DNA of 56,765 nt from Candidatus Doudnabacteria bacterium CG10_big_fil_rev_8_21_14_0_10_41_10 (lineage in GTDB: Bacteria > Patescibacteriota > Doudnabacteria > UBA920 > 2-01-FULL-50-11): NCBI GenBank assembly GCA_002773695.1, contig PFAJ01000006.1:1-56765 (forward strand). Reading direction: 5' to 3'. Position 1 is the stretch's first letter, and each line of letters begins with the position of its first letter. The translations under genes were made by a program, and so were the position numbers. Below, piece by piece: positions 14,983-53,209 of the stretch. The notes under the pieces are model-generated. The model did no database searches. It worked only from the letters and a program-made list of their open reading frames with translations, and was not told the origin of the DNA.

Positions 14983-16974
14983 TTACAACCACTTTTCCTT
15001 CCACATTTGGAAAACCATTAATGTCCAAAGAGCCTTGCGATTATCTTTCTTTCTTGCTGTATGTTCACTTACCAGTTTTTGAACATAGTTGGAGTTAAAG
15101 TATCCTTCTCTTTTAATTCTATCTGAGTTTAGGAGTTCATGCAAAAGTGGGTTTAGCGAACCGACAAGCCAATTTGCCATTGGGATGCCGAAACCTTTCT
15201 TTTTGCGGTTTACTATCTCTCGTGGAAGATATTTACCCATAACTTGTTTTAAAAGATATTTAGTAGTGAGACCGCGCATTTTGTATTTAACCGGTAAAGA
15301 ATTGATAAATTCCGCCAGCTCAACCGCTAAAAACGGGGCCCTGGTTTCCAGTGACACCATCATTGACGCCCGGTCGGATTTGGTCAGAATATTATCCTGC
15401 AAATACAATTTTAAATAAAGATAAATAATTTTGTTAAAACTGGAAGCATTTGGAACCTCATTGAGATAGCGCGCGATGTCGGAGAAGACGGGTATAAAAA
15501 AATTATCGTTCGAGCTTGTCGAGAAACTCTTTCTCGACTCCGCTTCTCTTTGCTCGAAGAATAATTGTTTGCATAGTTCTTCATTCAAAAGCCCTCCCTG
15601 CTCATGCGGGGCAAAAGAGTTAATCCAAACAAAATCACGATAAAGATTTGGATATCGCTTGCTTAAAGCAACTCTTTTCAATCCATACTCCCAGGTAATA
15701 TTATTAAAAGATGTTGGTAATGCATCTACCAAAGACTTCGGGATTAAATCTAGTAACCATAAAAACTTTCTTACCTGCATTGTCGGATACCCTCCCAGCA
15801 ACTCATCCGAACCATCACCGTCAAGCGCTACTGTAACTTTTTTCCGAGTGAATTTGGACAACAGATAAGTAGGTAGCATTGAAGCATCTGAAAATGGTTC
15901 GTCCAGTTTATCAAAAACTTCGGGGATCACCCCTTGTGTGTCTTTGCTTGAAAATATGTGCTCCGTGTGTTCCGTCCCTAAAATACCGGCGACTTTTTTT
16001 GCGTACGTAGATTCGTCAAAAGATTTGTCCTCAAACCCAATAGAAAAAGTTTTTACTTTCCGGGCACTGTTTTTTTGCGCAAAATACGCAATCGTTGAAG
16101 AATCCAGCCCTCCCGAAAGAAATACTCCCAAAGGAACATCGGAAACCAAGCGAGATTTTACCGCGCGCTCAAGTATGTGTTCGAGCTGAGCAGAAGCATT
16201 GGCAAGGGAAATATCAGATTCTTTGAAGGACATGCTCCAATATTTTGAAATTGTCCAGCCGTGTGATTCGCCGTCTGCCTCTCCCGGCCTCCGGCCACCC
16301 TCCCCGACTTCGGGGAGGGGTTGGGGGAGAGGCTTGGAACTTTGCCGATAAGCTACGGGATATTCCAAATAACTTGCCGGCTCCAGTTTATAAATCCCTT
16401 TAAAGATAGATAAAGGCGCGGGAACATAATCAAAAGTTAAATATTTTGAAAATGCCTCAAAATCCAGCTCTTTTTTTACAGCGGGGTGAGAAAGTATCGC
16501 CTTCAGCTCCGATCCAAAAATAAACACCCCATCAAAAGTTCCATAGTACAGAGGCTTTTCCCCAAACCGGTCTCGAGCCAGAATCAACTGATTATTTTTT
16601 TCATCCCAAACAGCCAATCCAAACATCCCGTCGAGTTTGTTAAAAACTTCGACCCCCCACTGCTCGTATCCGCGAATGATTACTTCGGTATCAGAATCGC
16701 TAGAAAAAGTTTGCCCCAATTTTGCAAGCTCAATTTTTAACTGGTGGTAATTGTAAATTTCACCATTGAAAACAATCGCAGACATTTTATCACCAGAAAA
16801 CATCGGCTGCTTCCCGCCCGCAAGATCAATAATCCGCAACCGACGCATACCAAGGGATACCCGGTTATTAACAAAATAACCTTCTTCATCCGGACCCCGA
16901 TGAACAAGGCTACGCGTCATTTTTTTTACAATGTTTTCGTTGGGCTTTCCAACAAAACCGGCAATTCCACACAT
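14983..16974 (-). CDS. asnB: asparagine synthase (glutamine-hydrolysing) family amidotransferase, glycan-cluster type (WbpS-like)
   Basis: 663-aa ORF with N-terminal nucleophile MCGIAGF and PP-loop SGGLDSS. It contains two in-frame palindromic insertions (see repeats at 15509 and 16277). Confidence 0.85.
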   Translation of the reverse strand: MCGIAGFVGKPNENIVKKMTRSLVHRGPDEEGYFVNNRVSLGMRRLRIIDLAGGKQPMFSGDKMSAIVFNGEIYNYHQLKIELAKLGQTFSSDSDTEVIIRGYEQWGVEVFNKLDGMFGLAVWDEKNNQLILARDRFGEKPLYYGTFDGVFIFGSELKAILSHPAVKKELDFEAFSKYLTFDYVPAPLSIFKGIYKLEPASYLEYPVAYRQSSKPLPQPLPEVGEGGRRPGEADGESHGWTISKYWSMSFKESDISLANASAQLEHILERAVKSRLVSDVPLGVFLSGGLDSSTIAYFAQKNSARKVKTFSIGFEDKSFDESTYAKKVAGILGTEHTEHIFSSKDTQGVIPEVFDKLDEPFSDASMLPTYLLSKFTRKKVTVALDGDGSDELLGGYPTMQVRKFLWLLDLIPKSLVDALPTSFNNITWEYGLKRVALSKRYPNLYRDFVWINSFAPHEQGGLLNEELCKQLFFEQREAESRKSFSTSSNDNFFIPVFSDIARYLNEVPNASSFNKIIYLYLKLYLQDNILTKSDRASMMVSLETRAPFLAVELAEFINSLPVKYKMRGLTTKYLLKQVMGKYLPREIVNRKKKGFGIPMANWLVGSLNPLLHELLNSDRIKREGYFNSNYVQKLVSEHTARKKDNRKALWTLMVFQMWKEKWL
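15509..15558. repeat. nested palindrome inside the asnB-like CDS (MITE-core module)
   Basis: TTCGAGC tt GTCGAGAAA ctc TTTCTCGAC ...GCTCGAA, translated in frame as FFEQREAESRKSF. The same CTTCGAGC..GTCGAGAA module occurs in the 35746/39120/46273 elements and at 31326-31411. Confidence 0.65.
16277..16333. repeat. GC-rich nested palindrome inside the asnB-like CDS
   Basis: GCCTCTCCC...CCCTCCCCG actt CGGGGAGGG...GGGAGAGGC, with perfect 9-bp outer and 9-bp inner stems. Translated in frame as KPLPQPLPEVGEGGRRPGEA. Confidence 0.7.
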
Positions 16975-31311: not shown

Positions 31312-31325
31312 TGTTCATTTTTCAC

Positions 31326-31411
31326 TTCTCGACTCCTCCGCCTGCCTAGACGAACTGGTTCGCTCGAAGAATAAATTATTGTTCGGGCCTGCCGGCAGGC
31401 GAAGTCGAGAG
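31326..31411. repeat. palindromic core fragment related to the MITE-like elements
   Basis: TTCTCGACTCCTCCGCCTGCC...CGCTCGAAGAATAA...GGCAGGCGAAGTCGAGAG. It is homologous to the TTCTCGACTTCCTCCCTAGGCGGACAAGTCGCTCGAACAATAA core of the copies at 35746 and 39120. No terminal repeats were seen. Confidence 0.55.
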
Positions 31412-31471
31412 CTCAACGAAAACCGTGAACTGAAAACTTATTAAACGCCTAATTATTGTATCCAAAAATAG

Positions 31472-35395: not shown

Positions 35396-35745
35396 TGTTC
35401 TTTTAATATTCCTTTCTTTGATTCCCTATCTTCGCTTTTGGTAAAACGATTCATTGTTCAATTGATACAATTAATCCGTTTAACCATCAACTATTTTAAA
35501 GAATCGAAGTTTTATTTAATTGATTTTCTTTAATCTAGTTTTTCCACATTTTGAAAGCTTTCTTTAAACATGTCGACCGATTATTAATCCCGACTTAAAT
35601 CGGGAGAGATATTTAAGTGCTTCCAAAAATAATTACTTATTGAGGAAAGCACTAGTTAAAGACGAAATAATGGGCGTTTCTTGCAATGCTGGAACAACAG
35701 TTAAAAATAACAAGGTTCTTAAACATTTACAGATCAGGAACCTTA

Positions 35746-35983
35746 GAATTACGAACCTCCAATTTCATGTCGTTGCGAGGATCCTTGGCGAAAATCCTGG
35801 GAAGATGTCGTTAATATTCTTCGAGCGAGGCGCTAGCCGAGTCGAGAAAATCCGAACAATATAATTCTCGACTTCCTCCCTAGGCGGACAAGTCGCTCGA
35901 ACAATAATATTCAGATTACCACGCGCTTTGCCACAGGCTCCTAGCAATGACACTAACGGTTTGAGAAAAAAATTCCGTAATTC
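35746..35983. mobile_element. MITE-like inverted-repeat element, copy 1 (divergent)
   Basis: Ends are GAATTACGAACCT...ATTCCGTAATTC. The internal CTTCGAGCGAGGCGCTAGCCGAGTCGAGAA and TAGGCGGACAAGTCGCTCGAACAATAATATT blocks are shared with copies 2 and 4. Confidence 0.65.
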
Positions 35984-36103
35984 ATAGTAGAACGGTATTT
36001 TGTATAAATGAACAGACGGAGGAGAATTCAGGCCGTTACATTGAGTTTTTTGGAGTTATCCACAGACTTATAAATAGTTTTCTGTAATATCTGTGAATAT
36101 CTG

Positions 36104-36134
36104 TTAAAAAAGCCAAAATATGAATTTTTTGGCT
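36104..36134 (-). terminator. rho-independent terminator downstream of the minor-pilin operon
   Basis: On the minus strand, AGCCAAAA aattcata TTTTGGCT is followed by TTTTTTAACAG. Confidence 0.55.
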
Positions 36135-36369
36135 CTTATATATGAATAATTATAAAATTTTGGTTAATTTTGGTCAATCGAGTTATCCAGATAGATATAC
36201 ATATAATTTTTGGCTTAAATTACGTAAAAAAAACGATATTTTGTGTGATCTTTATATATATTGATCTGCATTTTGTTTTTATGTCGTAAACTAACGAAAA
36301 ATATCTTAATATGTATATTATACCAGATATTTAACAATTTTGCAACCAAATAACCAAAAATTCTACCTT

Positions 36370-37122
36370 TTACCTCAAAATAACCTCTATCTTCCTTCTT
36401 AAATTATCAGAAATTCCTGTACTTTGTATTGTTGGAGATTCAGAGGGGATACCTGTTATCCCGCCTCCTGGAGATCCGGTTACAGAACCATTAACTGTCT
36501 TTGGCCCCCCGGTCTCAAGGGGGTCTGGATCTAAAAATATCGCGTAACTTTTACCAGGATCCAACCCACCTAAAACACGAGTGGTCCCATCTACTGCCAC
36601 CAAAACTCCATCTATCGCCGGCGGGTCATCTGGCGCGTTTATATCGTACGCGGAAACTGAAAAATTCACCGTCGTGCCAGAAGTTGCCGTGACGCTTATG
36701 GAGTTATATCCCGCGGCGGAATTTGTCTCATCGAAAGGATCATATAGAAGGATCGCTTTAACCTCATCAGTGAAAGTATTAAAATATAAAGGATCATCAT
36801 ACAAATCATTACAGACATTATAAGTTGCTCCCGAAGGAAGCTCCCCAAAATCCGTGAAAGGACAAATCTGTTCATTCTGACTAAGACCGCGAATCCGATA
36901 AAACAATGTTATTTCAGCGCCAGCCTCCGCTGAACTATAAGCCGGCTCGGACAGCGCTAACTGTCTGGACAATCTAAGCTCTCTTAACACTAAAGATCCT
37001 AGACTAAAACTGATCAAAGAAATTGCGGACAAGACGATAATCGCAATCAATAAAGTAATCCCCTGATCATATGATCTGGTGATTTTTTTTATTTTTCTAA
37101 ATTGTAAATAATCAAATCTCAT
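36370..37122 (-). CDS. PilX/GspK-like minor pilin (no Glu5)
   Basis: 250-aa ORF. The N-terminal helix follows DQG|ITLLIAIIVLSAISL and lacks the conserved Glu at +5, as in PilX/GspK-type subunits. It is the last gene of the pseudopilin block. Confidence 0.55.
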   Translation of the reverse strand: MRFDYLQFRKIKKITRSYDQGITLLIAIIVLSAISLISFSLGSLVLRELRLSRQLALSEPAYSSAEAGAEITLFYRIRGLSQNEQICPFTDFGELPSGATYNVCNDLYDDPLYFNTFTDEVKAILLYDPFDETNSAAGYNSISVTATSGTTVNFSVSAYDINAPDDPPAIDGVLVAVDGTTRVLGGLDPGKSYAIFLDPDPLETGGPKTVNGSVTGSPGGGITGIPSESPTIQSTGISDNLRRKIEVILR

Positions 37123-37138
37123 GATCTAAAAACAAAAC

Positions 37139-37747
37139 TTAATTTGAATATTGTCGCGATGAAACTGTCCCTTGTAATTTAATAGTTGTCTGATCAGTTG
37201 GACGAACATTTGTATTGGATGTTAAAGTCATTACAAAAGTCACCCTCGGTTGATCGTTTGGACAAGGGTCTGGACAAAACGGCAGACTAAGCGGATAAAT
37301 ATAAAAATCCACGTCTGAAACTATAATATCTGAATTTGATAATTCCGAACTGCCGACCCCCACCTTACTAAGCTGTAAAACCCCGTCGGAAAGACTAATC
37401 GTTATCATCTCCCCTGCTGAATTAATCAAATGTAATTCGTCTTCCGGTTGGGATATTCCGTACGCCACGTAAGATCCATAATCAATACTGCCGTTTCTCA
37501 CCTCCCTGGTTAAATATTCTGTAATAAATCTCGCGTTTTGTTCAACTACTCGAATAGCCCGACTCTTCTCGTTAATTCTTAGAACCGCCAAAAAAGAACC
37601 GATAATCGCGGTCATTGCCAAACTAAAAATCGCCACGGAAACTAATGATTCAACCAGGGTAAACCCTCTTTGTTTTCGTGAGGTTTCGCCAAATTTATTT
37701 GGCGTGAGGGTAAACCTTTTATTAATTTTTTTGCGCCAATTTTTCAT
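37139..37747 (-). CDS. prepilin-type N-terminal cleavage/methylation domain protein (minor pilin)
   Basis: 202-aa ORF with QRG|FTLVESLVSVAIFSLAM. Confidence 0.75.
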   Translation of the reverse strand: MKNWRKKINKRFTLTPNKFGETSRKQRGFTLVESLVSVAIFSLAMTAIIGSFLAVLRINEKSRAIRVVEQNARFITEYLTREVRNGSIDYGSYVAYGISQPEDELHLINSAGEMITISLSDGVLQLSKVGVGSSELSNSDIIVSDVDFYIYPLSLPFCPDPCPNDQPRVTFVMTLTSNTNVRPTDQTTIKLQGTVSSRQYSN

Positions 37748-37792
37748 ATTTTTTATCTATATGCCTGCCAAATTTTTTGAGTAAAGCTAACT

Positions 37793-38431
37793 TTAATAAT
37801 TTCTCCAGTTGGTCAAGTACTCTTCAATAACAACCTTACAGCGAGTTTCTGGCGGGCTATCGGTTGCGGCACAATTCTTCCCTTTCCACCACACCGTAGA
37901 CTTAACCAGCAACCGAGTGGCAGACTCTCTGGTGATTACTACCAGTCGGGAATATTTCCAATTTCCATTATCAACATGATTATAAGAACCGTCAGACTGC
38001 AAATACAGTCGAACATTCTGTCCGCCGGTTGATGTTAGAATTTGCCAAGAATTTCCATATGTAGAAAACTGCAATATGTATTTTTTTCCGCTAGGATTAC
38101 CTGAAATATTATAAACTTGGCTATCCCAATCCGCGTAACACTCCTGTCCTACCCCTATATCTGATGAACAGTCGCTTAGGCCGTCTGCGTCCTCCGCCTC
38201 CAACCAATTGGTGTCACGCATATTTCTTACAACCTCAACCCCCTCCCTGGCCAGATTTGTAGCCACAATTTGATTCACTGTCACATCCGATGCCCCTAAA
38301 GCAAATATTGCCAATGATAAACCGCCAATAATCCCGGTGGTAAGCAAAAAAATCGCGACTAAGGTTTCAATCAAAGTCTGTCCGTTTTCTTTTCCAAATA
38401 ATTCTATTATATTTTTTTGTTTTCTATTCAT
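37793..38431 (-). CDS. prepilin-type minor pilin (PilV-like)
   Basis: The ATG at 38431 (MNRKQKN) is preferred over the ORF-track start at 38485. NG|QTLIETLVAIFLLTTGI. Confidence 0.7.
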   Translation of the reverse strand: MNRKQKNIIELFGKENGQTLIETLVAIFLLTTGIIGGLSLAIFALGASDVTVNQIVATNLAREGVEVVRNMRDTNWLEAEDADGLSDCSSDIGVGQECYADWDSQVYNISGNPSGKKYILQFSTYGNSWQILTSTGGQNVRLYLQSDGSYNHVDNGNWKYSRLVVITRESATRLLVKSTVWWKGKNCAATDSPPETRCKVVIEEYLTNWRNY

Positions 38432-38527
38432 TATCGTTGAGATTTTCCAAAGGTCTATGACTGAAACACTAGAATATAAAAGCAATTAATCTTTTTTATA
38501 CTTTTATGATTTAGTAAATTCAAATCT

Positions 38528-39100
38528 CTACCTCACCTCAATTTTTCCCGTTATTCCATCAACTTCCACTTGTTTTGTAATTATATTGCCACTTCCCGCA
38601 TCCAATCGCAAATCAAAAAGGACGCCAACATTTTCTGCCTGATTATAGCTTGTACCAACGCCGGTAATCTTTATCCTCCCGAAAGGAGGAAAAAATCTTA
38701 CTTCTATTTTGCTAGCTGAAACTCCTTCAACCGTAAGATTGGTGGCTGTTACACCAGAGGCAAAAGTTACTGTTTCAAGGTTGGTTCTATTTGGGGTTGG
38801 GCTGTTGTTGTCTTCAACAAAAGTAGTGTAAGACTGCCCGTTATTACTTATTTCAAATCCAAAATCCTGGGCCACCTCGGTGGCGCTATACTCCAATCCA
38901 AACAATATATTACCCTGCATCTGTCTAAGGGCGCTCTGAACACTATCAGCGGCAACATTTAATCGTTGGATCCTTTCTCCTCGATTAAAATTAACAATAA
39001 CCGCCGCGCTTAAAAGCACAAGTATGGTTACAACCACCGTTAGCTCAACTAAAGAATACCCACCCTGCCTCTTTTGTTTACTATTTGTTTTATATTTCAT
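38528..39100 (-). CDS. prepilin-type minor pilin (FimT/GspH-like)
   Basis: 190-aa ORF with QGG|YSLVELTVVVTILVLL. Confidence 0.75.
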   Translation of the reverse strand: MKYKTNSKQKRQGGYSLVELTVVVTILVLLSAAVIVNFNRGERIQRLNVAADSVQSALRQMQGNILFGLEYSATEVAQDFGFEISNNGQSYTTFVEDNNSPTPNRTNLETVTFASGVTATNLTVEGVSASKIEVRFFPPFGRIKITGVGTSYNQAENVGVLFDLRLDAGSGNIITKQVEVDGITGKIEVR

Positions 39101-39119
39101 TGATTATTGTTCTATCCCT

Positions 39120-39364
39120 TGAATTACAAAACTCCGATTTCATGTCATTACAAGGATCCTTGGGTGTTGTTAATATCCTTCGAGCGAGGCGCTAGCCGAT
39201 TCGAGAAGTCGCAGATTTCGAGCCGAGTCGAGAAAATCCCACAACGCAGTCCTCGACTTCCTCCCTAGGCGGACAAGCCTCTCGAACAATAATATTTATC
39301 TTGCCCCCCAATCCAGTCCGGGGTGCAATGACACTAGGGGGTTTTCAAAAAGTTTCGTAATTCA
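39120..39364. mobile_element. MITE-like inverted-repeat element, copy 2 (full length)
   Basis: Ends are TGAATTACAAAACT...AGTTTCGTAATTCA, with sub-terminal GTCATTACAA...TGCAATGAC. It aligns end to end with the reverse complement of copy 4 and ends 20 nt upstream of the 39100 start codon. Confidence 0.75.
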
Positions 39365-39384
39365 TATTCTATCAACAGTTTAGC

Positions 39385-40170
39385 TTAAAAATAAGCTAAA
39401 TACCAATTTAAAATTTGTTCACCCCATAAAAACACCGCGACCGTTGAAGCGGTTAGAAAAGTGCCAAAAGGTAAAACACCTTTCATCGTTTTTTTCTTAA
39501 ATAACACCAATACAACCGCCACTACCGCTCCTCCGACATAAGCCATCCCCAACATTAAAACCGATAAAGAAAAACCAAGCATTAATCCCAAAAAAACTCC
39601 CAACTTTACATCTCCAAAACCAATCCACCGTCCTTGGGACACTAAAAATAAAATCCCAAAAAAACCAACCAAAACCAGCATACCGTACAAACCGCTTTTC
39701 AAAGATATTTCAGGAATAGTCAATCGATAAACCATGGCAAGGATTGTGCCCAAAATTATCGCGATATCAGGGATTAAGTAATATCGAAAGTCAAAAACAA
39801 AAATAATAATTAAGACCGAAACAAAAATCAAACCAAACCCTAATCCCAATAAATTTGAGGCTGATAAATCCAGGCTACCACCTAAAAATAAAATTTGACG
39901 CGCTAAAATAGTGAATATTGTCGCGGTTCCCAACTCAACTAAAGGATATTGCCAGGAAATTTTCTTTTTACAATAACGGCAACGACCACCTAACCAAAGA
40001 AAACTAAAAAGCGGCAGCAAATCCTTTGGAAACAAGCGATGAGAGCAACGCGGACAAGCGGAAAAACCCATCAGGGTCTTGTTTTTATACAGTCGATAAA
40101 TTACGGCATTTAAAAAACTGCCGACGATTAACCCAAAAATAAAAATGAGAATCGAAACCAAAAATTCCAT
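39385..40170 (-). CDS. pilD: prepilin peptidase (A24 family)
   Basis: 261-aa ORF with GSFLNAVIYRL, zinc-ribbon Cys pairs CPRCSH...CRYCKKK and the catalytic GFGDVKL. Confidence 0.9.
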   Translation of the reverse strand: MEFLVSILIFIFGLIVGSFLNAVIYRLYKNKTLMGFSACPRCSHRLFPKDLLPLFSFLWLGGRCRYCKKKISWQYPLVELGTATIFTILARQILFLGGSLDLSASNLLGLGFGLIFVSVLIIIFVFDFRYYLIPDIAIILGTILAMVYRLTIPEISLKSGLYGMLVLVGFFGILFLVSQGRWIGFGDVKLGVFLGLMLGFSLSVLMLGMAYVGGAVVAVVLVLFKKKTMKGVLPFGTFLTASTVAVFLWGEQILNWYLAYF

Positions 40171-40185
40171 AAACCCGTAAGTCCT

Positions 40186-40249
40186 ATTTTAAAAAACAAT
40201 AAGTAGCATATCCGAAGTTTACGCTATAGCGCAAGCTTTACTGCTACTC
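40186..40249 (-). terminator. hairpin plus T-run between pilin and pilD genes (terminator/attenuator)
   Basis: On the minus strand, GAGTAGCA...(inner CGCTATAGCG palindrome)...TGCTACTT is followed by ATTGTTTTTTAAAA. Confidence 0.5.
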
Positions 40250-40276
40250 ATTAATTTCAAACTTTTTTAGTTCAGT

Positions 40277-40747
40277 TTATAAATCCGGCAATGGGGGTGT
40301 AACAGTACCATCTTGATTCATTGTGTATAACACTCCGGTTTTTTCAAGTGTAAAGCTTACGGTATAGTTGGGACGCAAATCAGTTTGCCCTGAACAACCG
40401 GTCATATTTGCCCCGGTTACTGAATAAACATAGTTGTAGGTAGGAGCCAATGGATCGACGGGAACTCGCAATACTTGTTCCGCGCCGCAACTTATAGTGG
40501 AAGCGGCCACAAATTGAGAGGCGGGAGGATACGCGTCCGCGAAACTAAAGTAAACATCCATTCCCAGTCGAATCTGGTTAATATCGGAAACTCTTTTTGT
40601 ATCACGGGCTTTAACCCTGGCATTGCTCAAACTGGTGGTAATAATCGAAGCCAAAAGACCAATTATGGCAATAACCACTAAAAGTTCGATCAAGGTAAAT
40701 CCAACAATGGTTTTTTTCTTATTCCCAATTCCCGATTCGTTCTTCAT
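40277..40747 (-). CDS. type IV pilin (major-pilin candidate 2)
   Basis: 156-aa ORF with VG|FTLIELLVVIAIIGLLASI, the class III signal with Glu5. Confidence 0.85.
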   Translation of the reverse strand: MKNESGIGNKKKTIVGFTLIELLVVIAIIGLLASIITTSLSNARVKARDTKRVSDINQIRLGMDVYFSFADAYPPASQFVAASTISCGAEQVLRVPVDPLAPTYNYVYSVTGANMTGCSGQTDLRPNYTVSFTLEKTGVLYTMNQDGTVTPPLPDL

Positions 40748-40834
40748 ATTTCTATTGTTAATTTAAGCCCACAAGACTTCCCCCATAAGCAACTCTACTT
40801 AGGGGGAAGAGCTTTCAGACTTAAATGTTTTTTA

Positions 40835-41317
40835 CTACATACCGCCTTGTGTAGCAGTATGCACACCCGCTGTTAACCCGCCGGTTGCCGCGCCCAAACA
40901 AAAACTTATGCCATAAGTGCTGGCTGTTCCGGTGTACATATAAGTATTATTACCAGCCGGACTAGCCGTACATGTACCATCGTTAGGGTTAGGAGCAATC
41001 GGGGTACGAGACAAGATAATGCCGCCGGATGGAGATGCTTCAAAGTTGTTGCATCCATCGTCCAGCCCTTCGTTACCATCCAATGCTATGGCGGTTGCCG
41101 CGATTGGGTAACTACTGCAATCGTTAAAGTAAAGCTCCAACGCGGTTTGCAGTTGTCGGACATCTGCCACTCGTTTTGCGTCTCTGGATTTTGCTCGAGC
41201 GGAATTTAAAGACACTAAAACCACAGAAGCCAAAATACCGATGATGGCAATTACCACCAACAATTCGATAAGTGTAAACCCTTTTGATTTACTCCTTAAT
41301 TTTGATATAGTTTTCAC
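40835..41317 (-). CDS. type IV pilin (major-pilin candidate 1)
   Basis: 160-aa ORF with a GTG start preceded by GGGGGTGA. KG|FTLIELLVVIAIIGILASV. The 8-bp hairpin CTTCCCCC...GGGGGAAG (40777-40809) lies downstream. Confidence 0.85.
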   Translation of the reverse strand: MKTISKLRSKSKGFTLIELLVVIAIIGILASVVLVSLNSARAKSRDAKRVADVRQLQTALELYFNDCSSYPIAATAIALDGNEGLDDGCNNFEASPSGGIILSRTPIAPNPNDGTCTASPAGNNTYMYTGTASTYGISFCLGAATGGLTAGVHTATQGGM

Positions 41318-41447
41318 TCTTTAAACTCACCCCCTCTCGGTTTAGTGAATTTTATAGTTCTAAAACTCCAAAAAATAAAATCAGTATGTGTCAAAATCTT
41401 TTGTTGTGTCTTTTAGTTTCTAAAAACGAGACGGGGATATCTTCCGC

Positions 41448-42659
41448 CTAAAACGTACTAGCTAAATTATATATCGGAAGTAAAATTCCTGCAACCATTA
41501 TACCCACAGCCAAGCCCAAAATAACCATAATGACAGGCTCTATCAGGGTAGTCATTGTCGATATGGTATTTTCCAGCTGTTTATCGTAAAATTCGGACAA
41601 TTTCCTCAAAATTCCCGGTAAATCGCCGGTTTCTTCACCAACCGCGACCATTTGCGCCACCAACGGCGGGATTTCAGATGAATTTTCAAAGATTTTGTTT
41701 AACTGCTTTCCGGTCTGAACTTCTTTTGACGCATCCAAAAATAAATCTCTATAAACCCAATTACCCGTGATTCCAGCCACCAACTGCAAAGATTTTACGA
41801 TATTTATTCCCCCGTCCAAAAGATTCGCGATATGATGAGAAAAACGATAAATATAAATCGTTTGCAAAAATTTACCTACAATCGGAAGTTTAATGATAAT
41901 CCGATCTACCACGTAACGTCCTTTTTCAGTATGAACCATATATCGAAAACCAAAAATAGCGGTTACCATAAGAATTAACACTACCCACCAATATCCGGTA
42001 ACAAAATTGGTTGCCCCTATAATTATCTTGGTCGCGAAAGGCAACTCTGCTCCCGCTTCCAACAGCACCCCGGTCATTTGAGGCAAAACGAAGAAAAACA
42101 TTAGTCCGCCAACCGCAAATAATAATAAAATAATAAAAGCCGGATAGGCCAAGGCCCCGCGAATTTTCGATTTTAAATCATAATCCTTCTCTATTTGATC
42201 AGCTAAATAAATCAAAGTTTTATCCAAAGATCCGGAGGCCTCTCCGGCGCGAACTAAACTTGTATACAATTCCGGAAAAATATCCGGGTTGATCGCAAAC
42301 GCGTCCGATAAACTTTTTCCACCCTCGACTTCAAGGGATGTTTTTTCAATTATAATTTTAAATTTTGGCGAATTAACTTGTTTAACTAAAATCTGCAATG
42401 CTTTTACTATTCGAACTTGCGCGCCTACCAATGTCGAAAGTTGCCTGAAAAACATCACCATTTCTTTGGCTGAAACCGAAGAAAACTTTTTTAAAAGTTC
42501 GTCCAAACTGTCGATCCCGCCCGAAGATATTTCAAATTTAAGAGGCGACAAACCATGCTCTTCCAAAATTTCCGCGGCCTGAACCTCGGAGTCCGCCTCA
42601 ACTCTTCCTGCGACGATCGAGCCTTTCGCATCTTTACTTTTATATCGATATAAAACCAT
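41448..42659 (-). CDS. pilC: type IV pilus platform protein (T2SS F family)
   Basis: 403-aa ORF with two GspF-type repeats and 3 TM helices, located between pilT and the pilins. Confidence 0.9.
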   Translation of the reverse strand: MVLYRYKSKDAKGSIVAGRVEADSEVQAAEILEEHGLSPLKFEISSGGIDSLDELLKKFSSVSAKEMVMFFRQLSTLVGAQVRIVKALQILVKQVNSPKFKIIIEKTSLEVEGGKSLSDAFAINPDIFPELYTSLVRAGEASGSLDKTLIYLADQIEKDYDLKSKIRGALAYPAFIILLLFAVGGLMFFFVLPQMTGVLLEAGAELPFATKIIIGATNFVTGYWWVVLILMVTAIFGFRYMVHTEKGRYVVDRIIIKLPIVGKFLQTIYIYRFSHHIANLLDGGINIVKSLQLVAGITGNWVYRDLFLDASKEVQTGKQLNKIFENSSEIPPLVAQMVAVGEETGDLPGILRKLSEFYDKQLENTISTMTTLIEPVIMVILGLAVGIMVAGILLPIYNLASTF

Positions 42660-42678
42660 GACTTGTTTTTTTCAATCT

Positions 42679-43773
42679 TTAACGACTAACTAGCGAACTA
42701 AAAATTTCATTATCCAATGAATACGCTTGCGCGTCATCAAAGGTCACCAAGCCTTTTTTAACTAACTCGGACAAATAACGATCCAAAGAAACCATCCCTT
42801 TTGCTCCGGAGCTATGAATAATATTGTAAATTTCATAAGCCCGATTGTCCCGAATAACATTTCTAACAGCCGAATCCGCGAACAGAAGCTCGGTTGCCGG
42901 GATCAACCCCCCGCCAATTTTTGGCAACAACCGAATTGAAACTATTCCAAGCAGGATACTCGACAATTGATTGCGAATCTGTTGTTGTTGATGTGGAGGA
43001 AAAACATCCACTAAACGATCAATCGATTGTGCCGCGTCATTGGTGTGGAGGGTGGCAAAAACCAAGTGGCCGGTCTCGGCAACAGTCACCGTTGCCGCGA
43101 TTGATTCAAAATCGCGCATCTCTCCAACCATAACGACGTTAGGATCTTCCCTTAAAACCGACCGTAACCCTGATTGAAAAGAAACGGTATCTTCAAGCAC
43201 TTCTCGTTGACTGATAATGCTTTTGTCCGGCACAAACACATACTCAATCGGGTCTTCGAATGTTACGATATGCTCTGCTCGCTCATGGTTTATCTTGTCT
43301 ATTATGGAGGCTATCGCGGTCGATTTACCGTGTCCGGTCGGACCGGAAACAATGACTAATCCTTGTTTAACTTTGGTAAATTTTTCCAAAGCTTTTGGTA
43401 AATTTAACTCCTGAAGACTTTTGATTTTATTTGGAATCATCCTGATAGAAACCGCCAAAGTACTTTTCTGATAATAAGCATTCACCCGCAACCGGTGATT
43501 TTCTTTAAAAGGATACGAAAAATCTGTTTGTCTTATTTTTTCCAGCATATCTTTTTTTTGTTTCGGCACCAAAACACTACACAGACTTTCAATATTTTCC
43601 GGGGTCAAAACGTCATGATCTTTCAACTCAAGTAACACCGAGTGCACTCTATAGATTGGCGGTTTTCCGGCGAGTAAATGCAAATCCGACGCGTCTTTTT
43701 CCAACATGTTACTCAAAAGCTTATTGAGAGCTAATTCACTATTTTTGTACATACCGAGGGAATGAAACTTCAA
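42679..43773 (-). CDS. pilT: type IV pilus retraction ATPase
   Basis: 364-aa ORF with Walker A GPTGHGKST and VMVGEMRD. The His box is HLVFATLHTNDAAQSIDRL, typical of PilT. Confidence 0.85.
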   Translation of the reverse strand: MKFHSLGMYKNSELALNKLLSNMLEKDASDLHLLAGKPPIYRVHSVLLELKDHDVLTPENIESLCSVLVPKQKKDMLEKIRQTDFSYPFKENHRLRVNAYYQKSTLAVSIRMIPNKIKSLQELNLPKALEKFTKVKQGLVIVSGPTGHGKSTAIASIIDKINHERAEHIVTFEDPIEYVFVPDKSIISQREVLEDTVSFQSGLRSVLREDPNVVMVGEMRDFESIAATVTVAETGHLVFATLHTNDAAQSIDRLVDVFPPHQQQQIRNQLSSILLGIVSIRLLPKIGGGLIPATELLFADSAVRNVIRDNRAYEIYNIIHSSGAKGMVSLDRYLSELVKKGLVTFDDAQAYSLDNEIFSSLVSR

Positions 43774-43873
43774 ATCGTTATAAAACCAACGGTTTCGTAA
43801 CTTTCAAAGTATTAATTATTGCTATCAAATGACAATAGGATATCTTAATTTAACCCCTAACAATGCCCGACTA

Positions 43874-43993
43874 TGAATTACGAAACTCTCAAGCCGCTAG
43901 TGTCATTGCGACCCCGGACTGGATTGGGGGGCAAGATGAATATTATCGTTCGAGCGACTTGTCCGCCTAAGGAGGAAGTCAAAAACTGCATTC
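43874..43993. mobile_element. MITE-like element, copy 3 (half copy, truncated)
   Basis: TGAATTACGAAACTCTC...GTGTCATTGCGACCCCGGACTGGATTGGGGGG...CGACTTGTCCGCCTAAGGAGGAAGTCAAAAACTGC matches the first half of copy 4. Similarity stops about 20 nt before the stop codon of the receiver gene. Confidence 0.65.
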
Positions 43994-44012
43994 TGCCGGG
44001 CATATTTTATTT

Positions 44013-44369
44013 TTAAACAAATCCAGTAATTACTAATGCTATGTCACGATCACTGCTTTGAAATTTATTTAAATAACTATTCACTCCGCAATTGAGACAA
44101 TTTTCCACGGAAAATCGGTCCTGCCTTTTGGATAAAACGACAATTGGTAAAGAGGACAATTCGTGCCGCAACCGAATAGTTTTTACCAAATCTATTCCAT
44201 CCATATCCGGGAGATCAAGTTCTGTCACAATTACAGAAATAGGAAATTTTACAAACACATCCAAAGCGCGCTTCCCCAAAGAACAATGAGTGACCTCAAT
44301 TCCGGGTGGGCTTATCTTTTCAATAAATATTTCCTTCCAAATTGTATCGGGATCAACAAGTAGAATCAT
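44013..44369 (-). CDS. stand-alone response-regulator receiver domain (CheY/PilH-like)
   Basis: 118-aa ORF with ILLVDPD, VTELDLPDMDG (phospho-acceptor Asp), VVLSKR and YLNKF. There is no output domain. Confidence 0.8.
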   Translation of the reverse strand: MILLVDPDTIWKEIFIEKISPPGIEVTHCSLGKRALDVFVKFPISVIVTELDLPDMDGIDLVKTIRLRHELSSLPIVVLSKRQDRFSVENCLNCGVNSYLNKFQSSDRDIALVITGFV

Positions 44370-44373
44370 GGCT

Positions 44374-44461
44374 GGCTACAAAATTACGAATCTATACGAA
44401 AATACAAAAAGTTGTGGCCACGAAAATTCGTACTTTCGTAACTTTTCGTAAGTTCGTAGCC
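44374..44461. repeat. palindromic array of TACGAA/TTCGTA hexamers between pilB and the receiver gene
   Basis: GGCTAC...TACGAA (44385), TACGAA (44395)...TTCGTA (44427, 44435, 44445, 44453)...GTAGCC. The hexamer is the core of the MITE terminal repeat GAATTACGAAACT. Confidence 0.55.
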
Positions 44462-44462
44462 A

Positions 44463-46238
44463 CTAGACCTTGGTTACTCTCAAAACCTCTTCTAAACTAG
44501 TCACGCCAAGTAAAACCTTAATATACCCATCCTGCTTCATCGTAACCATCCCCTCTTTCAAAGCTTGATCCAAAATTTTACTTACCGGTTCTTTGTCCGC
44601 AACCAAAGCTTGAATCGATTTAGACATTGACAGTGCCTCAAAAATTCCAATTCTTCCTTTATAACCACTGCTACCACAAGCATTGCATCCCTCTCCGCGC
44701 CATAGACTAATATTGTTTAAATCCACATCCTTCATTTCATCTTTCGGTACATTTTTAAGCTCCTCCAGAATATCTTTTTTAATATCTTCTAAAACCGGAA
44801 CCTTTTTTTTGCACTCCGGGCACAATTTTCTAACCAAACGTTGCGCGAGAACCAAATTTAGAGAAGCCACCAACAAAAAATTATCAACTCCCATATCTAC
44901 CAATCGAGGAACGGCCCCGACCGCGTCGTTGGTGTGTAAAGTGGAAAATACCAAATGTCCGGTCAGCGCGGCGTGAACTGCCAATTCCGCGGTTTCAGAG
45001 TCTCGAATCTCTCCAACCATTACCACGTTCGGGTCTTGACGCAAAATGGAACGCAACCCCGAAGCGAAAGTCAAACCAATTTCCGGTTTTACTTGCGCTT
45101 GGTTTACACCTTCTAGAAAATATTCTACCGGGTCTTCCAAGGTCACAATATTAATCCCAACTTTGTTTAACTTGCTCAAAACCGAAGACAAAGTGGTAGA
45201 TTTTCCACTCCCGGTTGGCCCGGTTACCAAAACCATACCATGAGGTTTTTTCAAATTTTCTTCTACCTTTGCTTTTTGTCTGTTCCAAATACCCAAATCA
45301 TCCAATGTCGGCACGCCGGCGGTTTTATCCAAAATACGCAATACGATTTTTTCACCATTTACCGTCGGCAAAGTAGAAACGCGAAAATCAACCGAAATTT
45401 TACCAAATTGCATGTGGAAACGACCATCTTGCGGTAATCTGGTTTCATCGATTTTTAAATTTGAAAGAATTTTAATTCTGGATATAATCGCCGGATGAAC
45501 TGATTTAGGAATAATTAAAGAGCTTTGCAAAACACCGTCAACCCTGTAGCGCACTCTCAAATCGTGCTCGCTTGGTTCTATATGGATATCGGATGCCCTG
45601 GCCTCAATCGCGTGCTTAATCATCACGTCAACTATTTTTGATATTGGGGCTTCGGTGATTAACTGCGCGGCCTTGTCAGTTTTTATCCTTTGTTCCTGCT
45701 GACGCGCTGAAATTTCTTTTTCTTTTTTTGCAATATCTTCCAGCGCGGTTCGAACTTCTAAGCTAATATCTTTGTTTTGGGAAATCGAATTTTTAAAACT
45801 CGTAATGGATGATAAATAAATTTCAACTATAAAATGTTTTTTTTGAGCAAGAAATTCCAAAGCTTCTAAAGAGGTTAAATCCGCGGGATCGGTGATGGCT
45901 ACTTTTAAAACCTTCCCGTCAAAACCAAAAGGCACAAACTTGTACATCGCAATCGCGCTCTGCGGGATAGTAGCTACCATCTCCTTGGTGATTTTGAAAT
46001 TTTTTAAATCTATATACGGAAGCCTATAGTATTCCGCTCGCAACTGGGTCAACTCTTCTTCGTTAATTATTTTATTTTGCAGAAGCGACTCAATAAAATA
46101 CTGTCCCGAGCCGCGAGATTTTATGGATAGTTGGGAAAGTTTTTTATTATCAATCTTTCCTGAATGCAATAAAAATTCCTCAAAACCAAACATGGCGTTA
46201 GAAGAATTTATTACCTGCTGCTTTACTGGATCCATCAT
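44463..46238 (-). CDS. pilB: type IV pilus assembly ATPase (GspE/PilB family)
   Basis: 591-aa ORF with an N-terminal GSPII_E-type domain, Walker A GPTGSGKST, HLVFSTLHTNDA and the tetra-Cys motif CPECKK...CNACGSSGYKGR. Confidence 0.9.
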   Translation of the reverse strand: MMDPVKQQVINSSNAMFGFEEFLLHSGKIDNKKLSQLSIKSRGSGQYFIESLLQNKIINEEELTQLRAEYYRLPYIDLKNFKITKEMVATIPQSAIAMYKFVPFGFDGKVLKVAITDPADLTSLEALEFLAQKKHFIVEIYLSSITSFKNSISQNKDISLEVRTALEDIAKKEKEISARQQEQRIKTDKAAQLITEAPISKIVDVMIKHAIEARASDIHIEPSEHDLRVRYRVDGVLQSSLIIPKSVHPAIISRIKILSNLKIDETRLPQDGRFHMQFGKISVDFRVSTLPTVNGEKIVLRILDKTAGVPTLDDLGIWNRQKAKVEENLKKPHGMVLVTGPTGSGKSTTLSSVLSKLNKVGINIVTLEDPVEYFLEGVNQAQVKPEIGLTFASGLRSILRQDPNVVMVGEIRDSETAELAVHAALTGHLVFSTLHTNDAVGAVPRLVDMGVDNFLLVASLNLVLAQRLVRKLCPECKKKVPVLEDIKKDILEELKNVPKDEMKDVDLNNISLWRGEGCNACGSSGYKGRIGIFEALSMSKSIQALVADKEPVSKILDQALKEGMVTMKQDGYIKVLLGVTSLEEVLRVTKV

Positions 46239-46272
46239 AAATAAATTTACATTAGAACTTACTCATTCACTA

Positions 46273-46519
46273 TGAATTACGAAACTCTCTGAAAACCCCC
46301 TTAGTGTCATTGCGACCACGGACTGGATTTGGGGGACAATCTGAATATTATTATTCGAGCGACTTGTCCGCCCAAGGAGGAAATCAAAAACTGCGTTGTG
46401 GGATCTTCTCGACTCGGCTCGAAATCTGCGACTTCTCGACTCGGCTAACGCCTCGCTCGAAGGATATTAACGATGCCAAGGATCCTCGCAATGAGATTAA
46501 ATTGGAGTTTCGTAATTCA
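46273..46519. mobile_element. MITE-like inverted-repeat element, copy 4 (full length, opposite orientation to copies 1-2)
   Basis: Perfect ends TGAATTACGAAACT...AGTTTCGTAATTCA, each flanked by TA. Sub-terminal pair GTCATTGCGA...TCGCAATGAG. Two TTCTCGACTCGGCT modules. Confidence 0.75.
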
Positions 46520-46597
46520 TAAAATCCGCCTCTGACGAACCTTACGCCATTTAATTTCGTGTCAAACTTGGTCAAATAAAAAAGCTCTATAAAAATA

Positions 46598-46960
46598 CTA
46601 TTCCGAAATTTCTTCTGATGCTATCACTCCCTCTTCAACTAGCCCTGTCTCAAAAGAAAATGGATTTTCCACACCTAATTCTTCCGGGTCGACAGTCAGT
46701 TCTAAAGAAGGAATAAGCTCTAAATATCGCGAATCAGAAAATATACTAGTGTCAATTTCTTCACCAAAAGGCAACACTCCTTTTTGTCCGGAATACATGC
46801 CACCTATAACAGCCTGTTCAGAAAGTCTCGCTATCACTTCCGCGCTTGGTGGGGGGGAGCTATTTCTACCACTCAATAAAATCCATCCATTCGCAATGGC
46901 AATAACCACGATTAAACCAATATAAAAGGTTTTTTTTGTTTTACTTTGAATTTGCGTCAT
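46598..46960 (-). CDS. small membrane-anchored protein of the pilMNO block (PilP-position)
   Basis: 120-aa ORF with one N-terminal TM helix and an acidic C-terminus. The call rests on position only. Confidence 0.45.
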   Translation of the reverse strand: MTQIQSKTKKTFYIGLIVVIAIANGWILLSGRNSSPPPSAEVIARLSEQAVIGGMYSGQKGVLPFGEEIDTSIFSDSRYLELIPSLELTVDPEELGVENPFSFETGLVEEGVIASEEISE

Positions 46961-49419: not shown

Positions 49420-50658
49420 ACTGATAGTACACAACTAATCGCCAGCCGTTTGCCCTGGTTTTACCTGGCTAAAAGCCTTTGGAACAAGGCAAGGAAGCGG
49501 CCTAAAATAATGGTAAAGTCTTCACACCTAACCATCAACCTTAAAGACATCGCTTCCTTAGTATGGTCAATATACAACAGAGTTATCAAGAGCTCAAAAT
49601 CCGCTTTGGGCCCAAGACAGCCAGGGAATTGCTGCAGGATTGCCTAAAGCAAAACGACAATAATATATCAAAGGCTGCCAGAAAGCTAAAATGCAACAGA
49701 AGGACGGTTATGAAAGCGCTGGTTAAAAAAGAACAAAACAATCTAATGGACGCAAAGCACATACCTAACAGTCAGCCCAGGCAGACTAAACCGGAAATTG
49801 AGGCTCTTGTCCTTAAGTGGCGGGAACAGACCAAACGTGGCAAAAAACGACTACGTAAAATCTTTTTAGACGAAGAAAAAATCACTCTGCCGATATCCAC
49901 CATAGGAAAAATTCTGAAAAGGAACAATGTTAAACTGCGGTACAAGAAACGGAAACACAGAAGCAGTAATCCGCAGGCTTATAATTTTTCCAGCCTCATG
50001 CCATTTGAGAAGTTCCAGTATGACACAAAAGATTACCTTGATAAACAGGCCTTAAAGTAGGAAGCTTACAATCATGTCATCACGCGCGGCCTGCCCCATT
50101 ACCAGTGGACCTTTATTGATGTTAAAAACAGAATCAGATTTCTGGCCTGGTCGTACGAGCTGACCCGAAACTGCGGCATGGCCTTTGAATTGTTGGCTAA
50201 GAGCTGGCTTACTGCCCACGGATTAGCATAAGACCAAATCGAGGCGCGAAGCGATGGCGGAGGAGAAGTTGGGGTTTTAAGGAAAAGCTTTTTTGAAAGA
50301 AACAACCAGCTCTGGTGGCAACTTTTAGGCATAAAGCGCAAAATTATCAGAAAAGGGCATCCGGAGGACGACAGCTTTGTCGAACGATCGCATTTGACTG
50401 ACGATGAAAAATTTTATCTGCCTTTTTTAAGCCAAATTAATTCTGAACAGGAATTATTACAGCGTGGTATGTGGTGGCAGGACTATTACAACCGGCTGAG
50501 AGGACACCAGAGTCTGAATGACCTATCGCCCTACCAGTACTTATAATCTAAAAATTATATCCTACCCGAATCTTTTTGCCGTTTCCCTTCCGTTATCTTG
50601 GACACTATTTGCGTGCAGCCAGAGGTTATTGACTGGTCAAAAGTTGTGTATGATCAGT
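49420..50658 (+). mobile_element. insertion sequence with rve (DDE integrase-core) transposase, IS481-like, decayed
   Basis: The terminal inverted repeats are ACTGATAGTACACAACT (49420-49436) and AGTTGTGTATGATCAGT (50642-50658). They enclose a single transposase reading frame. Confidence 0.7.
49563..50546 (+). pseudogene. rve-family transposase interrupted by two in-frame stop codons
   Basis: One continuous frame: HTH N-terminus (ISKAARKLKCNRRTVMKAL), FQYDTKDY (D), TAG at 50058, YQWTFIDVKNRIRFLA, TAA at 50229, EARSDGGGEV (D), DDSFVERSHLTDDE (E). No frameshift. Confidence 0.7.
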
Positions 50659-52108: not shown

Positions 52109-53209
52109 TTATCTCACAACCTCATACAACTCCACCGGCCCATCAGACCTTTCCACATTAAATTTTACCCGGCCCAGGGTTTGACCGCGTTGGGTTTTTA
52201 TATACACCCGCCAGGATCCGGGCGGTAAAACGGTTTTTAAAGAATACCCTCGGAAACCCTCACGCCGGCCGCCGATTAAATTAAAAGACAATCTATCTTT
52301 GACAATCCACTTGCCCTGCTGTTCATCGTAATATTGCCATTCATGAACAATCGCGGTGTTCAGTTCTTTGGGCGCGTAAATAGAGCTGAAAACATAGGCG
52401 GGTTGGCCCGGTCGCAGATGAATGCTTCGACCCGGAATTATTTTTTCCAAAAAACTTTCCCGCTCGCCGCGCAAAATATACTGCCCACCGCTTTTCGCGA
52501 TACTATGGTAAACACCGATCTCGCGCATTGCCAGAGGCACGGGAGGAAGAAGGTTGGTAAAATAAAATAAGTTGATAATCAGTAAAATAGACGCGACGGA
52601 AATAGTTAAATATGAACCGTTAAATTTTTCCGCACCCGCGTTTTTTTTCAGAAGCCATGAAAATAACGCGATGTATACTGAGGTTATAGCCCCGGACAAA
52701 ACAAACAATAATGGACTTAGGGAATTGAAGATAAAAGGCAGACTAACAGAAAATATGGAAAGGGTGGCAAAAAAATAAACGCTTAACTGTACTGTGGGCC
52801 GCGCAAAGTGATGCCTCAAAGCGTCATTTGAAATCATGAGCGCTACAAAAGCCAAAATAAACGGCCAACTTACCCAGACGCTTCCGGAAAACCAATAAAA
52901 AATAAAAGAGTTGCTTAACATCCCTCCAAAGGTAAACTGCACCACCAGCGGGATAAACAGCCGGACATATTTGAACCTTTCCGGTAGTTTACCGGCATCA
53001 AACGCGTAAATAAAAATAATAGCGGAAGCGCAAATTACCCAGTAAATAAAAAGGATAATAATGGCGGTGTTGACTTGAATGTTAACAAAGGTAATATAGT
53101 CGCCCAAAAAACCGAAAGCCAAAGTCACCGGCATCAGCCAGCGTTCATATTTGGCGTAAAATTCTTTGACTTTTTGATAATGAAATTTGAAAGCAAAAAC
53201 CCTGCGCAT
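52109..53209 (-). CDS. membrane protein with C-terminal DUF2914-like domain
   Basis: 366-aa ORF with about 7 TM helices, then a beta-rich domain (HEWQYYDEQQGKWIV...GGRREGFRGYS...GSWRVYIKT). The first ~105 nt are duplicated at 54778-54882. Confidence 0.55.
   Translation of the reverse strand: MRRVFAFKFHYQKVKEFYAKYERWLMPVTLAFGFLGDYITFVNIQVNTAIIILFIYWVICASAIIFIYAFDAGKLPERFKYVRLFIPLVVQFTFGGMLSNSFIFYWFSGSVWVSWPFILAFVALMISNDALRHHFARPTVQLSVYFFATLSIFSVSLPFIFNSLSPLLFVLSGAITSVYIALFSWLLKKNAGAEKFNGSYLTISVASILLIINLFYFTNLLPPVPLAMREIGVYHSIAKSGGQYILRGERESFLEKIIPGRSIHLRPGQPAYVFSSIYAPKELNTAIVHEWQYYDEQQGKWIVKDRLSFNLIGGRREGFRGYSLKTVLPPGSWRVYIKTQRGQTLGRVKFNVERSDGPVELYEVVR
53097..53201. repeat. 105-bp direct repeat, copy A (5' end of the DUF2914 gene)
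   Basis: Matches 54778-54882 with only 3 mismatches by eye (TAGTCG[CC/GC][C/T]AAAAAACCGAAAGCCAAAGTCACCGGCATCAGCCAGCGTTCATATTTGGCG...). Confidence 0.85.

Follow-up and report, generated by a model that had tools for sequence, protein, structure and literature searches.

Inverted-repeat elements within the type IV pilus locus of a Candidatus Doudnabacteria genome are probably copies of a non-autonomous DNA transposon

We analyzed a 56,765-nt stretch of DNA (the whole of which is called the window below) from a metagenome-assembled genome (MAG) of a Candidatus Doudnabacteria bacterium with the locus tags COT91_ and the protein accessions PIR96740-PIR97630; homologues of its PilB protein bear the same Candidatus name. 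The type IV pilus locus of this stretch, whose genes all lie on the minus strand, contains three full copies (~240 bp) and one half copy of an inverted-repeat element, which we refer to as c1 to c4. The coordinates of the copies, first given in an earlier note on this DNA, were confirmed by direct sequence reading, a repeat finder, and a four-way alignment. Copy c1 (35741..35987 on the plus strand, with end-repeat bounds at 35746-35983) occupies the spacer that separates the gene for a 1275-aa protein from the last minor-pilin gene; it is full-length and the most diverged, reads CCTTaGAATTAC...CCGTAATTCA-TAG, lacks a 26-nt duplication, and carries a 16-nt insertion. Full-length copy c2 (39117..39366, plus strand, end-repeat bounds 39120-39364), which reads CCT-TGAATTACAAAACT...AGTTTCGTAATTCA-TA, is located in the gap separating pilD from the first minor-pilin gene and begins at a distance of 19 nt from the start codon of the gene at 38528-39100, close to the 20 nt estimated previously. 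Half copy c3 (43871..43995, minus strand) extends from the core loop through the right end, appears as CTA-TGAATTAC on the plus strand, and separates the response-regulator gene from pilT in the same orientation as c4. The latter (46270..46522, minus strand, end-repeat bounds 46273-46519) is a full-length copy with a perfect 14-nt inverted repeat and outer ends that are both of the TA type (CTA...TAA), and it is positioned between a 120-aa gene and pilB. Relative to the operon, c1 and c2 run in antisense orientation, c3 and c4 in sense orientation. Of the intergenic gaps of the pilus locus, the four largest (974, 284, 239-260, and 359-362 nt) are those that hold the copies, and the remaining ones measure 130 nt or less, as the earlier note had described. 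Open reading frames (ORFs) overlapping the copies are 62-74 aa long, and the element appears from its sequence to be non-coding. Promoter and terminator scans gave no excess over shuffles. Copy c3 is also surrounded by a 7-nt inverted repeat, ATGCCCG (43863-43869) and CGGGCAT (43997-44003), that closes a stem in the predicted fold.

Alignment of c2 and c4 in opposite orientation gave 87.1% identity over 248 nt, within the 85-90% that had been estimated by eye, and the 27-nt block GTCGCAGATTTCGAGCCGAGTCGAGAA is identical in c2 (39208-39234) and c4 (46407-46433). The element ends in a 14-17-nt inverted repeat, (CCT or CTA)TGAATTACGAAACT, that extends to CCTTGAATTACGAAA / TTTCGTAATTCAAGG in several copies, and its boundary lies 3 nt outside TGAATTAC on either side. 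With up to two mismatches allowed, the 14-nt end TGAATTACGAAACT was matched seven times in the window, every time at the end of a copy, compared to a shuffle expectation of 0.94; none of 100 shuffles reached seven matches. A 29-nt core pattern and a second core pattern were found four and three times in the window, respectively, with zero matches expected for either. The sub-terminal pair GTCATTGCGA/TCGCAATGAC reported together with these ends was also present in the copies. Inward of the ends lie this sub-terminal pair, GTCATTGCGAGG / CCTCGCAATGAC, then a linker that occurs in at least four versions between the pair and the core, and, at the center, a GC-rich core hairpin of ~110 nt composed of TTCGAGCGA-GGCGYTAGCCGA-GTCGAGAA, a loop, and TTCTCGAC-TTCCTCCCTAGGCGGACAAG-TCGCTCGAA. 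Complete copies range from 217 to 327 bp and are distinguished by indels of 16 and 26 nt.

As RNA, c1 is predicted to fold into one long hairpin (-81.9 kcal/mol, z -4.3), and c4 reaches -80.3 kcal/mol (z -4.0), in line with the long hairpin proposed earlier, whereas the fold of c2 is weaker (z -1.3) because of the 26-nt internal duplication that c2 and c4 carry. The two strands are about equally stable, with no consistent preference for either. In its consensus fold the core forms a three-way junction with 30 pairs, and among these copies, which are highly similar to each other, a compensatory change is seen at just one pair. In the second helix of the core, five of nine sequences have G-U pairs, which would be A-C mismatches on the opposite strand. 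No Rfam 15 family matched the elements at the gathering threshold, nor at E values up to 5 over positions 35600-46700, in a search that the earlier note had suggested.

The element also occurs outside the pilus locus. When 241 million metagenome records were scanned with the 29-nt core pattern, 13 loci were returned, 11 of which hold clear copies, the other two belonging to an unrelated high-GC organism. At both the DNA and the translated level, the 11 loci share nothing but the element with the window. Their proteins carry COT91_ / PIR96-97xxx identifiers, with the same prefix as the window proteins (COT91_00360-00560), and the loci therefore represent additional copies of the element on five further contigs of this genome. 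These copies reside in unrelated contexts, next to dnaE, prfA/rpmE/prmC, rpsB/tsf, a fur-like gene, dusB-like genes, and genes for large surface proteins. Including variants recovered with a covariance model of the core, at least 15 units were found on six contigs of this one MAG, six of them in the window and five on a single 40.7-kb contig. Copy c4 has 98% identity to the copy at locus L006, which lies on a different contig of this genome, and this shows that the family was recently active. Interspecies horizontal transfer as the source of this nearly identical copy was considered and rejected, as all of the loci come from the same MAG.

Several other samples yielded contigs that match the window with 100% identity and stop inside c1, c2, or c4, which is the typical behavior of assemblies at multicopy repeats. 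An inversion between c2 and c4 acting as a switch was likewise rejected, given that every contig from the other samples follows the order of the window and just terminates within a copy. The core pattern had zero matches in 185,579 species-representative genomes, and hence the family, or at least this MAG, is outside that genome set.

Comparison of individual copies revealed a mosaic build. The L006 copy corresponds to c4 plus a nested 107-nt hairpin module with a flanking 13-nt direct repeat, and it lacks a 27-nt duplication that c2 and c4 have in common, although c4 is otherwise much closer to L006; this distribution points to exchange between copies. The pilus copies belong to different sub-types and are therefore mostly independent insertions. 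In a second MAG, elements of 125-149 bp with a different interior are enclosed by these same ends and by the sub-terminal pair GTCATTGCGAGG/CGCAATGAC. The record of this MAG is labeled Gammaproteobacteria, but its proteins, which include MBI2633579 and MBI2633656, are identical to NCBI entries of the Parcubacteria group, so that this MAG also belongs to the Candidate Phyla Radiation (CPR). The element ends thus behave as an independent functional unit. In the Parcubacteria MAG (L002, 1383-2943), a 1.3-kb segment with ORFs of 168 and 132 aa, neither of which has a Pfam match, lies between a pair of small elements that have these ends; this segment could be a composite unit flanked by the small elements. 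The core, in turn, was found without inverted-repeat ends: alone (L011), as a short type that lacks TTCCTCCCTAGGCGGACAAG (L014), in tandem (L014/L015), in permuted form within the window (31325-31413), and in the Parcubacteria MAG.

We compared the pilus locus at the species level with those of three Doudnabacteria relatives, whose PilB proteins are 68-70% identical to that of the window. The relatives keep the gene order pilM-N-O, small gene, pilB, small gene, pilT, pilC, two pilins, pilD, four minor pilins, and ~1280-aa protein, and the small gene between pilB and pilT encodes a receiver-domain regulator in two of the three. None of the three has an element copy or an inverted-repeat match at the pilus locus, and the earlier note had named conservation at these orthologous positions as an argument against mobility; with this absence, the further copies elsewhere in the genome, and the negative Rfam search, neither of the note's conditions for refuting a mobile element was borne out. 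The junction between the small gene and pilB that holds c4 measures 362 nt in the window and 17 or 128 nt in the relatives; the regulator-pilT junction with c3 is 260 nt compared to 10 or 6 nt; and the junction between pilD and the first minor pilin with c2 is 284 nt compared to a 4-nt overlap or 85 nt. Copy c1 corresponds to a single clean gap (~277 columns) against two relatives in a long spacer upstream of the 1275-aa gene that is otherwise alignable. The pre-insertion spacer between pilD and the minor pilin can be reconstructed to 27 nt, gctaaactgttgatagaacaataatca. Since the relatives keep the operon without copies, the copies are not needed for pilus function. The spacer upstream of the ~1280-aa protein gene also contains, in three species, a conserved DnaA-box-like motif, TTATCCACA (36056-36064, a perfect match), together with the block AATAATCGGTCGACA (relatives L021 and L023). 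The cumulative GC skew is monotonic across the window, and the region is therefore not an obvious replication origin.

We examined ten complete elements, of which four are from the second MAG and the others from this genome (six), and compared their flanks with 90 control pairs of mismatched flanks. Exact flanking direct repeats of 7, 6, 6, and 5 bp were detected for four of the ten elements, namely TTCTATC (c2), CTGCCG (L005), TGTTTA (L002b), and TCGTA (L012), whereas no control pair reached 6 bp and one of the 90 reached 5 bp. The repeats start 3-4 nt outside the TGAATTAC core, or 2 nt at the right end of c2, where TTCTATC is located at 39110-39116 and 39367-39373. A paralogous empty site corroborates these data: the L005 copy splits GGGTATTCTGCCGGAAATAATAAA, which is found uninterrupted twice on another contig of the same genome (L010), and removal of the element and one CTGCCG from L005 restores the L010 sequence exactly, which corresponds to a 6-bp duplication. 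The sequence that served as this empty site belongs to a second repeat family of the same genome, GCAAGCCGCGTGGGTATTCTGCCGGAAATAATAAA, in which an AT-rich tail comes after a small GC hairpin; two of its copies are intact (L010, ~4540-4590 and ~5450-5500), and one, in the L005 flanks, is split by the element. Based on the flanking repeats and the empty site, the target duplication is ~6 bp. As true ends we obtain CCT-TGAATTAC...GTAATTCA-AGG, of which CTA/TAG is a common variant, and TA(G) is present at most right ends irrespective of the flank. The TA target duplication suggested by the earlier note could therefore not be upheld; the TA belongs to the CTA/TAG variant of the CCT/AGG ends, and the 5-7-bp repeats lie outside this 3-nt outer end.

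Taken together, these results are best explained if the repeats are copies of a non-autonomous DNA transposon, that is, a miniature inverted-repeat transposable element (MITE), with a mosaic palindromic interior, a reading to which we assign a probability of about 0.8. Five of six features by which MITEs are recognized can be made out in the sequences: short non-coding length, terminal inverted repeats, a target duplication, dispersed multicopy occurrence, and presence or absence at orthologous sites; the sixth, an autonomous partner element with the same ends, was not found in the sequences searched. The family is new within a well-known type of selfish DNA, of which no described example was found in its phylum, and is not a conserved regulator of the pilus; a full-text literature search for a MITE, a palindromic element, or the element motif in CPR/Patescibacteria returned nothing relevant. 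The family expanded within one Doudnabacteria genome, and its four pilus copies entered the short pilus spacers after the split from the nearest sampled relatives.

The mechanism that we envisage starts with a transposase encoded elsewhere that would bind the inverted repeats; the ORF of this partner transposase, which would most plausibly be of the DDE type that makes 6-bp duplications, would be bounded by CCTTGAATTACGAAACT. Insertion would proceed via staggered cuts ~6 bp apart and leave a duplication of ~6 bp. At the pilus locus, the copies would be transcribed within the polycistronic mRNA, given that the operon is co-directional and no promoter or terminator signal lies between the genes, and would fold into hairpins of approximately -75 to -82 kcal/mol. 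An effect on pilus expression, if there is any, would be a side effect and not the reason for the presence of the copies.

Several observations weigh against this interpretation. Neither the window nor the metagenome loci examined contained a transposase with matching ends, and a search of viral contigs with four element patterns and BLAST of plasmids and phages gave no match. Six of the ten complete elements, including c1 and c4, have no clear target duplication, the clear duplications vary from 5 to 7 bp, and the outer ends are asymmetric in many copies, with CCT on one side and TAG on the other. Core units without inverted repeats, whether alone, in tandem, permuted, or in frame in asnB, are unexplained by classical cut-and-paste transposition. 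The copies are also clustered more than would be predicted for random insertion, as the 14-kb operon holds four and the remaining 43 kb of the window hold none (rough post-hoc p values of ~0.004 by length and ~0.01 by gene junctions), and the five units on the 40.7-kb contig form a comparable cluster; local hopping, regional tolerance, or retention are possible reasons for this accumulation at the pilus locus. Finally, the two loci of the unrelated organism (59% GC) contain the exact 29-mer TTCCTCCATAGGCGGACAAGCCCCTCGAA (L004, 7699-7727, and L008, 5268-5296) in the spacer downstream of nrdR, and a chance match is very unlikely for a pattern with 25 specified bases. An Rfam scan of the high-GC locus that carries this 29-mer identified no family.

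The only insertion sequence (IS) in the window (49420-50658) was considered as a partner; it encodes an integrase-type transposase with HTH_8 and rve_3 domains, which has three in-frame stops and is thus a pseudogene. Intact homologues of ~375 aa (370-381 aa), 65-81% identical, are encoded on other metagenome contigs, and the three that we compared have conserved ends, GGCTAC followed directly by ACTGATAGTGCACAACT, the right end falling within the 3' end of the transposase gene. The IS was rejected as the partner because its ACTGATAGTGCACAACT ends are unlike those of the element, a loose TGA..TAC..AACT resemblance being judged insufficient; the earlier note was thus right in finding no matching transposase in the window and no relation between the two kinds of ends. 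Motifs similar to the DnaA-box-like sequence, GTGGATAAC, flank the IS at ~49372 and ~50683. Integron attC sites and CRISPR were dismissed as identities of the repeats on anatomical grounds, as there is no integrase and the spacing is irregular. The window additionally contains a 105-nt direct repeat (97% identity) at 53097-53201 and 54778-54882, one copy of which lies at the 5' end of a 366-aa membrane-protein ORF and the other in the spacer upstream of a 334-aa ORF.

Beyond the four pilus copies, two further core units and one separate hairpin were found in the window. The unit at 31325..31413 (plus strand), between the 1275-aa gene and a gene for a TPR protein, had been described as a core-only fragment at 31326-31411; it is indeed a core without inverted-repeat ends, but direct reading shows it to be a diverged and permuted one, in which the 3' arm of the core is followed by AATAAATTATT and the 5' arm. 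Its predicted fold has -41.8 kcal/mol (z -4.7), and the core covariance model misses it, as expected for a permuted unit. A core hairpin of the short type is located at 15494..15571 (minus strand) inside the ORF of the asparagine synthase gene asnB (14983-16974), where it matches the covariance model with 20.7 bits (E ~0.009) and is also supported by DNA alignment with other short-type cores. It is in frame and translates as (L)FFEQREAESRKSFSTSSNDNFF, and among 12 homologues that were aligned, 11 lack the resulting insertion of ~20 aa (FEQREAESRKSFSTSSNDNF). Another GC-rich palindrome, gcctctcccccaacccctccccgaagtcggggagggtggccggaggccgggagaggc, which is unrelated to the first, is in frame in asnB at ~16265-16330 (minus strand, codons ~207-240) and translates as KPLPQPLPEVGEGGRRPGE. 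In two relatives (L029 and L030), the same two asnB loops contain different hairpin-forming in-frame inserts (-37.9 and -39.8 kcal/mol). These two asnB loops are recurrent landing sites for palindromic DNA.

The third feature, a near-perfect 90-nt hairpin (44373..44462, minus strand) built of TACGAA/TTCGTA units with the ends TGGCTAC...GTAGCCA, is situated in the spacer that separates pilB from the response-regulator gene, with its end 5 nt short of the regulator start codon. On the mRNA strand its fold reaches -37.9 kcal/mol (z -7.75) compared to -28.8 kcal/mol on the opposite strand. It shares AATTACGAA with the inverted repeat of the element, but it is a separate hairpin and not demonstrably the decayed pair of element ends that the earlier note had seen in this hexamer array. 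No other TACGAA/TTCGTA cluster was found in all other DNA compared, and the cluster is absent in the relatives.

Four other explanations were weighed against the interpretation as a MITE. In the first, the core hairpin would itself be an independently mobile palindromic module of CPR bacteria, a counterpart of the Rickettsia palindromic elements (RPE), that rides in MITE frames but spreads independently of them, given its occurrence alone, in tandem, in permuted form, and in frame in a gene, and its accumulation at the pilus locus would reflect retention, with hairpins uncoupling or tuning genes that are tightly coupled in relatives. This extended scenario is speculative, and we regard it as doubtful.

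According to the second explanation, which we consider unlikely, the copies are domesticated RNA modules in the pilus mRNA that act as processing sites (e.g., for RNase III), stabilizers, or attenuators and thereby adjust the relative amounts of pilus proteins, a possibility already raised in the earlier note. The location of four copies inside one co-directional operon, where they would be transcribed if read through and where promoter and terminator signals are not in excess, agrees with such a role, and so do the strong folds of c1 and c4. Weak hints in the same direction are the strand of 10 of the 12 distinct genome copies, which by eye is the same relative to the nearest co-directional gene, the G-U pairs in the second helix of the core, and the neighboring 90-nt hairpin just upstream of the regulator gene, which is 9 kcal/mol more stable on the mRNA strand. 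However, the otherwise identical operon of the relatives has no copy, both orientations occur within one operon, and most copies adjoin unrelated genes. Neither the folding energies, with no consistent strand difference, nor the single compensatory pair in the core, nor the Rfam search point to a selected RNA.

A third possibility, quite unlikely in our view, is that the repeats are palindromes resembling the repetitive extragenic palindromic (REP) sequences and their hairpin-forming doublets (REPINs) or RPE, which spread as single-stranded hairpins or by recombination, for instance through a Y1 enzyme of the REP-associated tyrosine transposase (RAYT) type, and that the inverted-repeat frame is incidental. 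The basic block of ~19 nt, TTCGAGCGnnGTCGAGAAG, is combined with its reverse complement in inverted pairs, and this mosaic composition recalls the bacterial interspersed mosaic elements (BIMEs). The occurrence of the block alone, in tandem, in permuted form, and in a second CPR genome would be expected from such spread, as would the in-frame unit in asnB and the other palindromic in-frame inserts at the same asnB loops in relatives. On the other hand, the complete elements have inverted repeats and 5-7-bp duplications, which are not produced by REP/RAYT or IS200/IS605-type insertion, and no RAYT or TnpA(Y1) gene was noticed among the ORFs and gene calls of the window and the loci inspected. 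The core-only copies could also be truncated or decayed remnants of complete elements. Finally, a cis-regulatory element specific to the pilus locus, either a leader or intergenic RNA or a protein-binding site, that was duplicated within the operon would account for the four copies being restricted to this locus within the 57-kb window, but it is highly improbable given its absence at the orthologous junctions of three relatives, its presence at the dnaE, prfA, rpsB, and fur-like loci of the same genome, and the flanking target duplications.

As a MITE, the element can be placed among several known systems. The Correia elements (NEMIS) of Neisseria are likewise short, non-coding, bounded by inverted repeats, multicopy, and intergenic, and they are co-transcribed into long mRNA hairpins, as would be the case here. 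The Correia hairpins are RNase III substrates and can alter the expression of neighboring genes. They have no sequence similarity to the element and differ in size (~100-155 bp), inverted repeats (26 bp), and duplication (TA), whereas the element of 217-327 bp has inverted repeats of 14-17 nt, a duplication of ~6 bp, a separable GC-rich core, and a CPR host. RPE resemble it as palindromic selfish repeats that sit in frame in genes without destroying them, as in asnB here, but a single in-frame case was found, most copies are intergenic, and the full element has inverted repeats and a duplication; moreover, the sequences are unrelated and the host phylum is a different one. Similarly, the REP/BIME/REPIN sequences of Gammaproteobacteria are mosaics assembled from a handful of short palindromic motifs, whose units pair in inverted orientation into hairpins and lie between operon genes, but REPINs are RAYT-linked and have neither terminal inverted repeats of the transposon type nor a target duplication, unlike the element with its ~6 bp. 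MITEs derived from IS630/Tc1 transposons, such as RUP of Streptococcus pneumoniae, share with it the non-autonomous, inverted-repeat-bounded organization and mobilization in trans. The affiliation with this group that had been suggested in the earlier note does not hold, as the TA duplication by which the group is defined is not seen in the element and no IS630-type transposase was found.

The genomes of CPR bacteria (Patescibacteria) are small and generally considered poor in mobile elements, and the type IV pilus is regarded as central to the attachment of these episymbionts and to their DNA uptake. In practical terms, the copies explain why assemblies of this organism break at these points, and the defined ends, together with the length of the duplication, can be used to seek the partner transposase. 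For the organism itself, the family has split pilus gene junctions that range from overlapping to 128 nt in relatives and has put an in-frame hairpin into asnB. The locus may be viewed as a natural experiment, in which a reduced genome tolerates long hairpins inside an operon that looks essential.

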